Shown here: positions 2,262 through 7,756 of the stretch, one piece after another | Position numbering within the stretch: the first letter of the stretch is position 1 | Layout of the letters: every line of letters begins with the position of its first letter | DNA from: a phage | DNA: 33,238 nucleotides | Reading direction: 5' to 3' (one strand) | Assembly (NCBI GenBank): GCA_018175035.1 | Contig: GCA_018175035.1_4099.2 | Made by a program: the position numbers and the translations under genes | The notes under the pieces: generated by a model | What the model was told of the DNA's origin: nothing | The model's input: only the letters and a program-made list of their open reading frames with translations | The model's database searches: none

Positions 2262-2431
2262 GAACAGTATTTTTTATCTGGAGTCTTTTTTCATTGGCAG
2301 TACTGACAGTATGTGGGATTTGTTTACTTTCGACAATGAATGTCTGGTACATTAATTTACTATTCCCATTCGTAGGTGTAGGTTTAGGATTTACTTTACA
2401 TAGTGTTTGTAAGGATTTTAATGGCAAATAA
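2258..2431 (+). CDS. Small hydrophobic membrane protein (57 aa, two predicted TM segments); not in ORF track
   Basis: ATG 2258 overlapping upstream stop (ATGA); translation MRTVFFIWSLFSLAVLTVCGICLLSTMNVWYINLLFPFVGVGLGFTLHSVCKDFNGK*. Confidence 0.4.
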   Translation: MRTVFFIWSLFSLAVLTVCGICLLSTMNVWYINLLFPFVGVGLGFTLHSVCKDFNGK

Positions 2432-2705
2432 ATCGAATGAAGTACTTGTTGCTGAAACAATGAAGATGGTTTATGCCATAACAACTAGTAATGATTTGTC
2501 TTACCCAATTAAGTCCAAGTTGAGGGATATAACTCTTCAGGTTATACAGCAGTACTACAAATCTAAACACAAAAGTATTATTAATGTTTATCGTGACTAT
2601 GAAAGGATTCGCATTTTGTTCTGGAACAAGAATCGAGTTCGTTCGGAATGTGATATAGAAAACTTTAAATTTGAGAATCTTTATTGTTACAAAGCGGGAC
2701 AATAG
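2421..2705 (+). CDS. Hypothetical protein
   Basis: First ATG (MANKSNEV...) inside track ORF 2403..2705, which starts at GTG. Confidence 0.5.
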   Translation: MANKSNEVLVAETMKMVYAITTSNDLSYPIKSKLRDITLQVIQQYYKSKHKSIINVYRDYERIRILFWNKNRVRSECDIENFKFENLYCYKAGQ

Positions 2706-2723
2706 CTCAAGTAGTGATATAAT
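2694..2723 (+). promoter_or_regulatory. Sigma70-like promoter with extended -10 (GTGATATAAT), weak -35
   Basis: TGaTATAAT at 2715-2723; -35 position reads CGGGAC; same 10-mer recurs at 11433 and 19136. Confidence 0.35.
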
Positions 2724-2763
2724 ATTGGATGAGGAACAATAACTAACACAAGGAGTGTGTAAA

Positions 2764-3687
2764 GTGCCAAGTAAAAAGCCAGATTCTGAAGTATTCAGAC
2801 TGGTTGATGAAAAATTGAGTTCAATTGGTTCATCGGTAAAAATGGATAGAACAACATACACTACTATATCAAACAAATCAACTTTTTTCTGTGATGAATG
2901 TGGGTTTAGTAAAAATATCATAGTTAGGAATGTGTACAAAAATGGAATATTTTGTCACTGTCCCACATTTAAAACTTTATATAATAAATTGGGTGAAATT
3001 AATTCAAAATTAAAATTAGATATTTCCACATTCACAACTACAAAAAACAAATCTAGATTTTATTGTGACGATTGTGCGTTTGAAAGATATATGACGGTGC
3101 ATGATGTTAAGTCTAGAGGTTCATATTGTAAATGTCATTCATCATATTGTATGCCGTTAGATATCGACGAAGCATATAACACTATTATGAATAAAATAAA
3201 AGATTACTCAAATACAATATATATGGATAAATCTACATACCGTGGTACACAATATAAGGTTAGATTTTATTGTACAGCGTGTAATTTTGACAAATATATT
3301 AATTATAGTAGAGTTAAATGTGGATCTCTTAACTGCAATTGTATCAGACCAATCCCAGAAGAAAGTAAATTATATATTTTAGGAATATATGAACAAAATA
3401 TTTTAATAAAATATAAAGTTGGTATTTCTACAAAGATTGATAAATCAAGACTAATTAGTATTAGGTCAAAAACTAATTTTATAGTAGAGGAATTATATTA
3501 TTTTACTGGAAATACCGAAGTTATTAAAAGTGTAGAATATAATATTTTAAATCTGCTTAAAAATAGTAGTAAATTGCCAAAGGATTATTTTGGTGATGGG
3601 TATACTGAAACATTTGATTTACAAGACATAAATCTTGTTATTGATTATGTATGTAAATGTTTACTCGAAAATAAATTAAAAATATGA
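2764..3687 (+). CDS. Cys-rich protein with three zinc-ribbon-like repeats and a C-terminal T5orf172/GIY-YIG-like domain (tentative)
   Basis: GTG start 8 nt after AGGAG (track start 2755 is also GTG); three repeats of (R)F(F/Y)C(D/T)xC...C(H/K/N)C; C-terminus YILGIY...KVGIS...GDGYTETFDL. Confidence 0.55.
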   Translation: MPSKKPDSEVFRLVDEKLSSIGSSVKMDRTTYTTISNKSTFFCDECGFSKNIIVRNVYKNGIFCHCPTFKTLYNKLGEINSKLKLDISTFTTTKNKSRFYCDDCAFERYMTVHDVKSRGSYCKCHSSYCMPLDIDEAYNTIMNKIKDYSNTIYMDKSTYRGTQYKVRFYCTACNFDKYINYSRVKCGSLNCNCIRPIPEESKLYILGIYEQNILIKYKVGISTKIDKSRLISIRSKTNFIVEELYYFTGNTEVIKSVEYNILNLLKNSSKLPKDYFGDGYTETFDLQDINLVIDYVCKCLLENKLKI

Positions 3688-3712
3688 AAATCATAAACAC
3701 AAGGAATGTGAA

Positions 3713-4441
3713 ATGATAGATAATATAAAATTTGCAACAGAAATGGCGAATCAACTCAATATTGCAAATTTCCAAATGTTAACATCTGTTATGGCTGAAC
3801 ATGCTGCGGCATATTCATCTAGCGGTATACAATGTGGACAAGCTAACATGTTAGCTGATGTTTATAGTGAAGTTCAAAGCAAACAATATAGCGTAAAGAC
3901 ATACAAGGATAAGTTCGTAAGTCTTTATATGAATGAAGATATTTCAGAAGACCGCAAATTCACCGATTTTATTATTGAACGCCGTATTAGTGGGGTTTCA
4001 GACCCAAATGCAGCAAGTGATATTGTATTCGATGAGGTATTAAAAGATATATATGAAAATGAATTGAAAAGTAAGAATCATTACAATGTACGTGAAACTA
4101 ACACAGTGCTAGTTGGATATGATGAAGACGACCAATATTTCTATTTTCGTATAACAGAAGTTCCATTTGAATATAAAAAACCATCCACTACATCGGTAAA
4201 AGAATTCACTGAGAAGAGTAAAAACTTCAAGAAACACGAAGGAAACCGTTGTAGTATTAATGGTTATGATGAAAATGGTGTTCATGTTTATGAATGGGTT
4301 TCACCTAATTGCCAAACATACACTCGTTGCTTGAAAAAACGTTATAATTTAGAAGAGCATGAATCATTCTATTTTAAAGTTAAGAAGCAAGGTTACACTC
4401 GCCCCGCCGATTCTGAATTGATGGGTATGATATATTTCTAA
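3713..4441 (+). CDS. Hypothetical protein
   Basis: ATG with AAGGA SD; 242-aa ORF. Confidence 0.65.
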   Translation: MIDNIKFATEMANQLNIANFQMLTSVMAEHAAAYSSSGIQCGQANMLADVYSEVQSKQYSVKTYKDKFVSLYMNEDISEDRKFTDFIIERRISGVSDPNAASDIVFDEVLKDIYENELKSKNHYNVRETNTVLVGYDEDDQYFYFRITEVPFEYKKPSTTSVKEFTEKSKNFKKHEGNRCSINGYDENGVHVYEWVSPNCQTYTRCLKKRYNLEEHESFYFKVKKQGYTRPADSELMGMIYF

Positions 4442-5087: not shown

Positions 5088-5666
5088 ATGAATGTATTAG
5101 AATTAAGTACTAAGCTGATTAGTATGCGTAATGAGTGGTACGATTGGTTTTATAATGGTACTGATATGGATTTTTCAAAATATCCATTTATGGAATCAGG
5201 ATGTGATGCAAGATACCGCTGGTTGAGCAAAGATTGTTCTGGTTTACATATTCTAGTTGACGATAGTGGTCAGGGAATTATAAAAGATTTACTTCAAGTT
5301 GAACAACTCGTCCATGATAATTGGTGTGATAACGATCCATACCTTGGAAATATGATTTATGTAAGTGAAGATGATTGCATATTCGTTATCCAGCGTCATG
5401 GTAATTCTATGTTTTATGTAGCAGACAGCAGTACTCCAGAAGGTGCAGCAGCCGATGGTCTTATGCCTAAGATTGATATATTGGAATTTGGATTACCTGA
5501 GCACTTCCAGATTAGTACTTTATACGATATTCCACCACTTGAGTTCTTTGAAGAATTTAAATTGTACTACAATGATCTTCAAAAATTGAGTACTGATCGA
5601 CGCATTGAAATAACTGTTAAGTACATGGACGGAACGAAATTAACTGATACGGGGATAGAATTTTGA
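5088..5666 (+). CDS. Hypothetical protein
   Basis: ATG with AAGAGGA SD; 192 aa. Confidence 0.65.
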   Translation: MNVLELSTKLISMRNEWYDWFYNGTDMDFSKYPFMESGCDARYRWLSKDCSGLHILVDDSGQGIIKDLLQVEQLVHDNWCDNDPYLGNMIYVSEDDCIFVIQRHGNSMFYVADSSTPEGAAADGLMPKIDILEFGLPEHFQISTLYDIPPLEFFEEFKLYYNDLQKLSTDRRIEITVKYMDGTKLTDTGIEF

Positions 5667-6352
5667 TTAAAGATTTAGATAGAATTTTATATGTACTAAG
5701 GGGTGTAATTACATTACATCCACAAATCAATCGAATTGAAAGTACATTTCAGTTGGAGTCAAGAGAAACTCCATATTCACATATATCAAATGTAGTTGGT
5801 TCACTCAGTACTGAAGACTCGCCTTACGATATTTGTGTATGTGAAGTACAACCAAGTTCGGATCTTGGATTTGCTATTTTTGATAAAAATCAAAATCTCA
5901 TTAGTATGTTTCAGTGCAATAATCCTTTTTGGAAAACATGCCTGTATCCAGAGTGGGCGATGCTTGATCCAACCAAGAGTACCATTAAAGTTTATGACTC
6001 TAAAAATGATGAAGTCGTTATTGATTTGGATGAGTCAATGTCAGAGGAAGAACACTTTCAGCTAATGATGATGCGTGCTATGCCTGAGTACAATGCAATG
6101 ATTAACACTGTGCAATACATTAAGGATACTATGCCATCATTGCGTACACATGAGTTTTGTCATCCTGTATTGTATGAACATTTGGATTTAGATTTCAGTA
6201 CTATTAAATTTAAAGATAGTGTTATTAGATATATCCAAGAGGTTACTAAATTTGATTTTATTAGTACTATGAACAATAATCCAAAAACTAATTTTAGGCA
6301 TCAGTACAATGAATCTTTGTCCGGTGGACGCGATACAAGTTGGTGGAAATAA
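5663..6352 (+). CDS. Hypothetical protein
   Basis: TTG start overlapping upstream stop, GGGGA SD 8 nt upstream; 229 aa. Confidence 0.55.
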   Translation: MIKDLDRILYVLRGVITLHPQINRIESTFQLESRETPYSHISNVVGSLSTEDSPYDICVCEVQPSSDLGFAIFDKNQNLISMFQCNNPFWKTCLYPEWAMLDPTKSTIKVYDSKNDEVVIDLDESMSEEEHFQLMMMRAMPEYNAMINTVQYIKDTMPSLRTHEFCHPVLYEHLDLDFSTIKFKDSVIRYIQEVTKFDFISTMNNNPKTNFRHQYNESLSGGRDTSWWK

Positions 6353-6353
6353 T

Positions 6354-6617
6354 ATGAATATTAAAGATAGATTACAATTACTATACACTATTGAACAGGC
6401 TGCTTTTGAACTTGTTAATAAAATCTCCGAAGAACTTCCCAAAGGAACTATAGTTCGTGTAATTGAGAGGGATTATGAATCTGGAGAAATTGAAGAACTA
6501 GTACTAACCGTGAATAAAGTAACATACTATGAATCTGAGTTGGCTATCCAATGTATATCGGAAGATGGTAAAATATACTATTATGACACTGGTGTAGATA
6601 TAGAGGTAATAAAATGA
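6354..6617 (+). CDS. Hypothetical small protein
   Basis: ATG 6354 directly after upstream TAA, GGTGGAAA upstream; track start 6309 would overlap upstream gene by 44 nt. Confidence 0.5.
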   Translation: MNIKDRLQLLYTIEQAAFELVNKISEELPKGTIVRVIERDYESGEIEELVLTVNKVTYYESELAIQCISEDGKIYYYDTGVDIEVIK

Positions 6618-7756
6618 CCCTTTTACAAATATATGAAGATTTAATGCACTTATGTAATACAAACGATGCGTTTTTTTATGTGGATCATAAAAGTCCTGCT
6701 GGTGGTACGTATCGTGTATTCAGTTATCGTCTAGCATCATACACTGATTTCATGCAACCAAATGCGTTGGAAACCCGTGGCTCTATGTGGGAAATTGATG
6801 AAGAAGGTGACATGATACGTTGTGCAGCACGTACAATGAAAAAGTTCTTCAATGCTTACGAGAATCCTGCTACAATGTTCCCTGCTAACACCACATGCGA
6901 TGACATTGCGGTAGTGATGCCTAAGTTGGATGGTTCGATTATCAGTACTTATCGTGATAATGATGGTGAGATTCGTTGTAAATCACATACTGCATTGTAT
7001 TCTGACCATGCGATTAACAGTACTCGACTTATTAACGAGAACCAGAATTTGTACCAGTACATCGACGAAGCGGAACGTTTAGGTTACACAGTTAATATGG
7101 AGTATACAAGCCCAGAGTACCGAATTGTATTACCATATCAGGTAGAACAACTGTTTGTACTGAACGTTCGACATCGTGTGAGTGGTGAGTTGCTATGTGG
7201 TAAAGCACTACGTGATAAGTTTCCATGTCTTGCACAGTACAGTACTAATATGACTGGAAAAGATATTCATCACACTTTTCCGGTACGAAATACCTTCCGT
7301 GAAAGCGTGGAGGAAGTTCATAAAATGCTTGATATTGAGGGTTTTGTGTGCATCCTAAATAATGGGACAATGTGTAAAATAAAGACTGACTGGTACAGTT
7401 CATTACATCTTACAAAAGATAGTATTATTATTGATTCTCATTTATATGAAGCAGTATTAAATGGTTCAAGTGATGATTTAAAACAATTGTTCAGTACTGA
7501 TGAATATGCTATGCAAAAGATATTAAGAATGGAACAATTGGTATTTTCGTGCTATAATGCATTACAAGATGAAGTAGAAAGCTTCGTCAAGGAACACAAG
7601 CACTTGGAGCGAAAGGAATTCGCAATGAAGGTTCAGGAGTGTTTAACTAATGAACTGAATCGTCAGGGCTTGGCCTTTGCAATGTATAACAATAAGAAAG
7701 TTGATTACAAAGAGACTCTTATAAAATACATGAAAATTGTACTAAAGGATTTTTAG
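6614..7756 (+). CDS. rnlA: RNA ligase 1 (T4 Rnl1 / gp63 family)
   Basis: N-terminal region closely resembles T4 Rnl1 as I recall it (FFY..D...G.TYR.FSY..ASY.D...P.ALE.RG...E.D....R...R.M.KFFN..ENP.TM); KxDGS nucleotidyl-lysine motif (PKLDGS); ~380 aa. Confidence 0.9.
   Translation: MTLLQIYEDLMHLCNTNDAFFYVDHKSPAGGTYRVFSYRLASYTDFMQPNALETRGSMWEIDEEGDMIRCAARTMKKFFNAYENPATMFPANTTCDDIAVVMPKLDGSIISTYRDNDGEIRCKSHTALYSDHAINSTRLINENQNLYQYIDEAERLGYTVNMEYTSPEYRIVLPYQVEQLFVLNVRHRVSGELLCGKALRDKFPCLAQYSTNMTGKDIHHTFPVRNTFRESVEEVHKMLDIEGFVCILNNGTMCKIKTDWYSSLHLTKDSIIIDSHLYEAVLNGSSDDLKQLFSTDEYAMQKILRMEQLVFSCYNALQDEVESFVKEHKHLERKEFAMKVQECLTNELNRQGLAFAMYNNKKVDYKETLIKYMKIVLKDF

Follow-up and report, generated by a model that had tools for sequence, protein, structure and literature searches.

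Positions 2764 to 3687 (plus strand) of a 33,238-nucleotide (nt) phage contig, GCA_018175035.1_4099.2 of NCBI GenBank assembly GCA_018175035.1, constitute with good probability a homing endonuclease gene (HEG), free-standing and of the T5orf172 class known from phages, in an Asteriusvirus jumbo coliphage. We refer to this whole stretch of DNA as the window. The reading builds on domain homology, a fold in the structural model, conserved residues, the anatomy of the insertion, a sporadic distribution, and a mosaic tract around the gene, all of which are shown by the analysis. Homing is favored over an Odn-like nuclease or a CapR-like regulator because the nuclease motif is intact, diverged copies of the gene are faithful to one site, and the mosaic tract is centred on the gene. 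The window is 95 to 97% identical over 20 kb to the Asteriusvirus jumbo coliphages G17, Sharanji, 121Q, PBECO4, and slurp01, whose genomes are about 350 kb, and on sequence similarity it derives from such a phage.

The CapR DNA-binding module consists of the cysteine motifs CxxC and CxC separated by 24 to 26 amino acids, and its cysteines are needed for DNA binding, as seen in an electrophoretic mobility shift assay with a Cys-to-Ser mutant (Netter et al. 2021, PMC8096241). CapR-related modules have been recognized in putative homing endonucleases of ICP1 that carry a C-terminal T5orf172 domain (PMC8096241), and one T5orf172 protein, Odn, has been shown to be a site-directed nuclease whose activity requires a conserved Glu (Barth et al. 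2021, PMC8263062). In a survey of 229 phage T5orf172 HEGs, 87% carried at least one zinc finger of the CapR, DUF723, or DUF4379 type, often repeated, and such HEGs occur at boundaries of sequence recombined between phages (Barth, Dunham & Seed 2023, PMC10448857).

Zinc finger repeats and a predicted nuclease domain

The gene is one intact open reading frame (ORF) of 307 codons plus stop. A plausible start is GTG 2764, 8 nt past the Shine-Dalgarno sequence AAGGAG (2750-2755); we prefer it to GTG 2755, the start in a mechanical ORF list, because the latter codon overlaps that Shine-Dalgarno sequence. A coding sequence at equivalent coordinates, starting at GTG 2764, is annotated in vB_Ec-M-J and EC.P1, two public records with the gene, and the vB_Ec-M-J annotation names it "endonuclease." The GC content of the gene is 26%, against 33% for the window. 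Its parts are as follows.

2764..3687, plus strand: probable homing endonuclease ORF, 307 amino acids, GTG start (ORF, repeats, phrog_681, vB_Ec-M-J annotation)
2791..2964, plus strand: putative zinc finger repeat 1, CapR/DUF4379-like, residues 10-67, with C43, C46, C64, and C66 (repeat hidden Markov model [HMM], hhalign; weak CoiA_N and GATA zinc finger matches)
2965..3138, plus strand: putative zinc finger repeat 2, residues 68-125, with C101, C104, C122, and C124 (repeat HMM, hhalign)
3172..3345, plus strand: putative zinc finger repeat 3, residues 137-194, with C170, C173, C191, and C193 (repeat HMM, hhalign; aligns with Pfam-verified CapR segments of relatives P0014 and P0021)
3358..3684, plus strand: predicted T5orf172/MUG113-type GIY-YIG nuclease domain, residues 199-307 (Pfam matches of relatives, hhalign, conservation, model)

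The N-terminal part of the 307-residue protein is made of three internal repeats of 58 amino acids, delimited with an HMM built from the repeats. Their pairwise local alignments score 83 to 132, compared with about 25 ± 5 for shuffled sequence (z = 11.5 to 23.8; none of 300 shuffles as good). Each repeat holds a CxxC followed 17 residues on by a CxC, which supply the ligand cysteines listed above, and the strings LYILGIY, YKVGIS, and GDGYTETFDL are found toward the C terminus. All 12 repeat cysteines and the C-terminal motif residues are invariant in relatives down to 55% identity. A preliminary description of this gene had pointed to three CxxC...CxC repeats and a YILGIY...KVGIS...GDGYTETF pattern at the C terminus, and the comparison with shuffled sequence and the string matches bear this out. 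It had called the repeats zinc ribbons; their Zn-binding character stands, while the generic ribbon gives way to the more specific CapR/DUF4379 (treble-clef-like) type, for the reasons that follow.

A word-indexed protein search returned just three relatives (98%, 74%, and 55% identity). An exhaustive HMMER search with an alignment of the close relatives, against a library of 1.8 billion representative proteins, returned 52 at E<=1e-3. When these 52 were scanned against Pfam, DUF4379 was matched in 24, CapR in 23, MUG113 in 19, T5orf172 in 17, and DUF723 in 16; DUF4379 is a probable treble-clef zinc finger. Six relatives (P0007, P0008, P0009, P0014, P0016, and P0047) pass the T5orf172 or MUG113 gathering score over the segment aligned to residues ~196-303 of the window protein, with HMMER profile search E-values of 2.6e-10 for P0007 and 2.8e-10 for P0008, and the CapR and DUF4379 matches in relatives such as P0014 and P0021 cover segments aligned to the window repeats. 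The protein itself matches the PHROG family phrog_681, "endonuclease," with E 7.5e-21 over residues 31-303.

Profile-profile comparison agrees with these assignments. The C-terminal domain of the window subfamily aligns in hhalign with six Pfam-verified T5orf172/MUG113 domains at a probability of 99.6% (E 1.4e-23), which upholds the earlier suggestion of a T5orf172/GIY-YIG-like C terminus and, with it, of a putative sequence-specific DNA-binding nuclease. A profile of 12 repeat copies aligns with CapR-verified segments at 95.0% (E 3.9e-8) and with DUF4379-verified segments at 95.3% (E 2.1e-8), with both cysteines of the first pair and the leading Cys of the second in register. The repeats are best described as CapR/DUF4379-type (treble-clef-like) zinc fingers, putatively DNA binding, and the C terminus as a T5orf172/MUG113 domain of the GIY-YIG superfamily, a predicted nuclease.

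Seven residues (Y204, K218, G220, R229, E258, G279, and E282) are invariant across the domains of 45 relatives at 21 to 34% identity, and T281 is at least 90% conserved in the 45 C-terminal domains. By their motif positions, Y204, G220, R229, and E258 would correspond to the "GIY" Tyr, the "YIG" Gly, and the catalytic Arg and Glu, and G279, T281, and E282 to the G-x-T-E motif of the family. E258 would be the counterpart, by motif position rather than superposition, of the catalytic Glu of I-TevI (E75) and Odn (E180).

An AlphaFold model of the full-length protein is of moderate confidence (predicted local distance difference test [pLDDT] 76.5) and gives each repeat a helix, three strands, and a short helix. 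The C-terminal domain modeled with the 45 aligned relatives is confident (pLDDT 95.4, predicted template modeling score 0.87), and in this model it adopts a GIY-YIG fold with a beta-beta-alpha-beta-alpha core. Against viral predicted structures (BFVD), Foldseek returned 199 matches at E<=1e-3, the top ones listed being approximately full length; the matches bear names referring to CapR homology, T5 Orf172, GIY-YIG, or zinc ribbons, and RaK2 and the Asteriusvirus phage UB are among the phages represented. A search of all six frames found no paralogue of either domain elsewhere in the window.

Some of the relatives, P0031 among them, join arrays of CapR/DUF4379 fingers to DUF559/MTES_1575 in place of T5orf172. 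We take DUF559/MTES_1575 to be Vsr-like PD-(D/E)XK nucleases. The arrangement indicates that nuclease modules may have been shuffled onto a common DNA-binding array.

Distribution and anatomy of the insertion

In tblastn searches the gene appeared in only three phage records (EC.P1, TH47, and vB_Ec-M-J, hereafter J), at 97.7 to 99.7% protein identity, and 33 other related records match both flanks without it, so that it is present in 3 of 36. It is thus a presence/absence polymorphism at one precise site among collinear, closely related genomes. A scan of the whole window against Rfam matched no family, group I and II introns included, and the gene lies between other genes, with a start and a stop of its own; we therefore rejected an intron-encoded HEG, and the gene is not embedded in an intron or an intein.

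Alignment of filled sites with empty ones, which are intact in 33 records, mapped the junctions to the base. A cassette of 951 bp is always found at the start codon of the same gene, which encodes 242 amino acids. Empty sites read ...AACACAAGGAGTGTGT(G/A)AA(A/G)TG up to the junction and CTTGACCGT... beyond it, the ATG or GTG being the start of this conserved 242-residue gene. In HEG-positive genomes, the same ribosome-binding box and GTG now open the endonuclease gene instead (...GGAGTGTGTAAAGTG, then CCAAGT... from the junction on), and a second, slightly diverged box (AACACAAGGAATGTGAAATG) after the endonuclease stop starts the displaced gene. The two boxes form a direct repeat of 25 nt, 951 nt apart and 80% identical. 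A general ribosome-binding motif of the phage was considered as the source of this repeat and rejected, since in the 33-kb window the box is found only at the two junctions. The features of the site are as follows.

2696..2723, plus strand: promoter-like site with extended -10 element (TGATATAAT) (consensus match only)
2738..2762, plus strand: left copy of the 25-nt direct repeat, the resident translation-initiation region (AACACAAGGAGTGTG) now used by the HEG (junction alignment, repeat search)
3689..3713, plus strand: right copy of the repeat, new ribosome-binding site for the displaced gene (80% identical, 951 nt downstream)
3713..4441, plus strand: downstream gene of 242 amino acids, unknown function (phrog_16105), with a candidate recognition/immunity region at 3713-3765

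Since empty sites carry the -10 element as well, the cassette probably sits on a resident promoter, and this promoter, recognized by a consensus match in a region where promoter-like sites are no commoner than in shuffled sequence, probably drives both the HEG and the gene downstream.

A gene placed directly on a conserved promoter-like and ribosome-binding region might encode a domesticated DNA-binding regulator whose nuclease domain has degenerated, either a CapR-like repressor or an I-TevI-like autorepressor of its own promoter and translation-initiation region. CapR is a repressor derived from this very zinc finger module (PMC8096241), and I-TevI combines nuclease and autorepressor functions (PMC10448857). 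CapR, however, comes without a nuclease domain, whereas here the domain is full length. Moreover, its core Y, G, R, and E are invariant both in relatives of 21 to 34% identity and in the 55%-identical orthologue, and 33 of the 36 related phages dispense with the gene. We consider a purely regulatory protein very improbable.

Site fidelity and the predicted target

Homologues of 74% and 55% identity on metagenomic contigs occupy the same position, directly upstream of the 242-residue gene and in the same gene order. In all HEG-positive alleles, these two included, the downstream gene opens with ATGAT(A/T)GATAA(T/C)AT(A/T)AAATTT (MIDNIKF), whereas the HEG-less alleles examined open with (A/G)TG(C/A)TTGACCGTATC(C/A)G(T/A)TT (LDRIRF, or IDRIRF in phage A4), so that the two kinds of allele differ consistently at codons 2 to 7. 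The substitutions that separate them lie in the first ~50 nt of the gene (3713-3765). Compared with G17, the window carries 12 differences in the first 30 nt of the gene, against just 2 in nt 61 to 90. More generally, 12 to 13 of the first 30 nt distinguish HEG-positive from HEG-less alleles, and this is common to alleles linked to HEGs of 100%, 74%, and 55% identity. At the two metagenomic loci, the next stretch of the gene is partly or wholly of the HEG-less type.

An empty site of 141 nt shows identity of 99% or more across 23 records, Salmonella phages included, and is 77% identical to the HEG-positive allele. These comparisons lead us to predict that, in HEG-less phages, the protein recognizes or cleaves a site overlapping the translation-initiation region and the opening codons of the 242-residue gene, and that cuts on HEG-less DNA would fall within ~50 bp of (A/G)TGCTTGACCGTATCCGTTT.

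The 141-nt stretch (in G17, L001 2300-2440) comprises the promoter, the ribosome-binding site, and the first 82 nt of the 242-residue gene. Across E. coli and Salmonella Asteriusviruses it is 99 to 100% conserved, and the DNA surrounding it in them is ~86% identical to the window. Such conservation appears unusually strong for a putative HEG target.

A nuclease with these properties could also serve in conflicts between phages, cutting the DNA of a competitor (phage, satellite, or plasmid) for the benefit of its carrier in the manner of Odn, its position in the genome being incidental. Anti-satellite defence is one use to which T5orf172 nucleases have been put (PMC8263062), HEGs and conflict genes have been described as swapping domains (PMC10448857), and cutting HEG-less relatives would amount to marker exclusion as well, so that the two roles overlap. 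The specificity of Odn, however, comes from a RepA_N domain and not from CapR fingers, and three diverged versions of the window gene share one site and one linked allele, as site-specific homing predicts. The defence models of PADLOC-DB gave no family at E<=0.1 for the window protein, and the reading as a known defence system was dropped for this reason. A conflict nuclease at an incidental position is, in our estimate, quite improbable.

The mosaic tract around the gene

In identity profiles taken in windows of 100 to 150 nt, the contig is 99 to 100% identical to G17 and slurp01 almost throughout. Identity to these phages drops to 56 to 87% at ~2300-4300, a patch that is centred on the gene and reaches beyond the insert by ~500 bp on its left side and ~600 bp on its right. 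The same interval is 98 to 100% identical to at least one of the HEG-positive phages J, EC.P1, and TH47, and to all three over ~2700-4300, while the backbones of these phages differ from the window in neighbouring segments (44 to 90% identity).

2300..4300, strand not applicable: apparent imported tract, co-conversion-like (identity to J/EC.P1/TH47 versus G17-type backbone)

On the right, the tract from 3700 to 4300 is common to all four HEG-positive genomes at 97 to 100%; on the left, its end point differs between phages, and the HEG-less phage CMSTMSU shares the left flank of the window (97 to 100%). Such a tract is what would arise had a G17-like genome acquired the cassette through recombinational repair, with flanking donor sequence co-converted along with it. 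We take the gene to be flanked by such a co-conversion tract and to be recently mobile, that is, to have been copied recently between related giant E. coli phages. The preliminary description had not noticed this mobile character.

To the left of the tract, at 1700-2100 (ORFs 1711-1974 and 1971-2261), the phages fall into two allelic types that differ sharply: the window shows 99 to 100% identity to G17 there, compared with 44 to 63% to J, EC.P1, TH47, CMSTMSU, and WPEC5, and slurp01 changes type at ~2000.

A model for homing, and how it is weighed

Taking these observations together, we infer nuclease activity, the identity of a target site, and the homing process itself. In our model, the three tandem CapR/DUF4379-type fingers would read a long DNA site, and the C-terminal T5orf172 domain would cut or nick the DNA nearby. 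In a mixed infection, the HEG-less allele would be cleaved at or near the start of the conserved 242-residue gene, and recombinational repair templated by the HEG-positive genome would bring in the 951-bp cassette along with several hundred base pairs of donor flank. The cassette would thereby take over the promoter, Shine-Dalgarno sequence, and GTG of the 242-residue gene, and the duplicate ribosome-binding box that it brings would keep the displaced gene translated. HEG-positive genomes are predicted to be immune, the site being split by the insert and 12 to 13 of the first 30 nt of the downstream gene being substituted.

A number of results weigh against this model. With regard to the protein, hmmscan against Pfam (E<=10) listed neither the T5orf172 nor the MUG113 model for it, and no match to CapR, DUF4379, or DUF723, the repeats giving only a sub-threshold match of CoiA_N to repeat 1 (17.1 bits, cutoff 26.3). 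An NCBIfam scan returned nothing meaningful for either domain. Profile searches of the PDB were not significant, the full-length query giving a GATA zinc finger (E 0.012) and the best GIY-YIG match of the C-terminal profile being a UPF0213 GIY-YIG protein (E 0.55). The preliminary description had named profile support for a T5orf172/GIY-YIG domain as its check; direct Pfam comparison came back empty on this point, whereas hhalign, with the other profile evidence, and the structural evidence were positive.

With regard to the locus, the allele-specific substitutions lie within 50 bp of the insert, and tight physical linkage alone could give the association. Because no function is known for the flanking genes, the gene does not follow the tendency of HEGs to adjoin essential genes (PMC10448857). 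Other diverged patches, at 751-900 (91% identical to G17) and 6087-6686 (85 to 92%), hold no recognizable nuclease gene, and these phages are mosaic in general, so that ordinary recombination could have moved the cassette. A second presence/absence polymorphism, also with no nuclease gene attached, lies close by at 5101-5600, inside an ORF of 192 amino acids (5088-5666); this stretch is absent in CMSTMSU and WPEC5 and present in G17, slurp01, J, EC.P1, and TH47.

The diverged patches and the second polymorphism would both sit well with a gene that is passive cargo, inactive or irrelevant and moved by ordinary homologous recombination, its flanks reflecting general mosaicism. Yet the ORF is intact and constrained, keeping its 12 cysteines and catalytic motif residues at 55% identity, and the imported tract has the nuclease gene at its centre, which is the pattern reported for this HEG class (PMC10448857). 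We give passive carriage a very slim chance.

The homing model also lends itself to a more speculative extension, to which we attach a low but appreciable probability. The insertion may represent a distinctive mode, "start-codon capture," wherein the cassette sits on the initiation codon of a conserved gene and is expressed from the promoter, Shine-Dalgarno sequence, and GTG of that gene, bringing a spare ribosome-binding box with it, and the three fingers bind a site of ~30 bp that spans this translation-initiation region. If this were true, the protein could also act as an autoregulator of its operon and, in mixed infections, help its carrier to exclude competing jumbo phages that lack the HEG.

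Neighbouring genes and an over-represented palindrome

The gene sits among small ORFs on the same strand, all without known function, and genes for RNA ligase, polynucleotide kinase, and DNA ligase lie downstream. Pfam and PHROG scans of the flanking genes matched only families of unknown function, and a link to an essential neighbour was dropped on these grounds.

The preliminary description had further proposed the protein as a candidate reader of the palindrome CAGTACTG, which might be bound or nicked by it. CAGTACTG is truly over-represented (22 sites against 0.61 expected), far ahead of every other 8-mer palindrome in the window, and the protein is a plausible sequence-specific DNA binder. 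The distribution of the two speaks otherwise: G17 has no copy of the gene and yet carries the palindrome at the same positions, and of the 36 related records only 3 carry the gene and 33 lack it. The insertion-site region itself contains no CAGTACTG, the nearest in the window being at 2298. The chance that the protein reads or nicks this palindrome is, in our view, negligible, and CAGTACTG is instead a feature of the whole lineage with some other cause (a modification or recognition site?), independent of the endonuclease gene. Its 22 sites are dispersed over 519-31003 (for example, 2298-2305 and 5806-5813), about one per 1.5 kb, with no extended flanking consensus.

Significance and comparison with known systems

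The present reading turns a "hypothetical protein" of jumbo coliphages into a specific, testable candidate homing endonuclease, with a predicted target at the promoter-proximal start of the 242-residue gene in HEG-less Asteriusviruses. It would extend the T5orf172/CapR HEG class to the Asteriusvirus (121Q/PBECO4/RaK2-like) jumbo phages, which are not mentioned in the main text of PMC10448857; a literature search on Asteriusvirus homing endonucleases found no title or abstract concerning this gene. Divergent members of the class are missed by current Pfam models. The locus offers a clean natural case of apparent HEG-linked co-conversion, usable for studying recombination and marker exclusion in jumbo phages, and nuclease engineering might find some interest in a modular reader with three fingers and a long target. 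No general concept is changed; this is an ordinary type of element, unusually well documented here.

Closest to it are the HEGs of ICP1, Gp174, Gp165, and Gp121 (PMC10448857, PMC8096241), which, like the window protein, have one or more N-terminal CxxC...CxC modules, often repeated, followed by T5orf172. In both cases the genes are free-standing, sporadic, carried by lytic phages, and found at boundaries of recombined sequence. The window protein differs from them in being too divergent for direct CapR, DUF4379, DUF723, T5orf172, or MUG113 Pfam matches; in having three fingers; and in being carried by a ~350-kb Asteriusvirus coliphage with neighbours of no known function. The PLE repressor CapR has the same type of four-cysteine DNA-binding module as the window repeats (PMC8096241), but the spacer between its Cys pairs is longer (24 to 26 residues, against 17 here), and it is a satellite-encoded transcriptional repressor with a single module and no nuclease domain.

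ICP1 Odn (Gp88, PMC8263062) likewise ends in a T5orf172 domain with a conserved Arg and a catalytic Glu, and in our literature survey it was the only biochemically proven T5orf172 nuclease found. Unlike the window protein, it is targeted by RepA_N, acts against the PLE satellite, and is not known to home. The T4 proteins SegA to SegG and I-TevI belong to the same GIY-YIG superfamily and are built, as the window protein appears to be, from modular DNA-binding and nuclease parts; the Seg genes lie in intergenic positions between conserved genes, flanking markers are co-converted with them, and the endonuclease-positive allele carries resistance polymorphisms. Overall, the window protein has, by its sequence features, exactly the architecture of the T5orf172/CapR-finger HEGs described in PMC10448857, of which it is a divergent and previously uncharacterised member.

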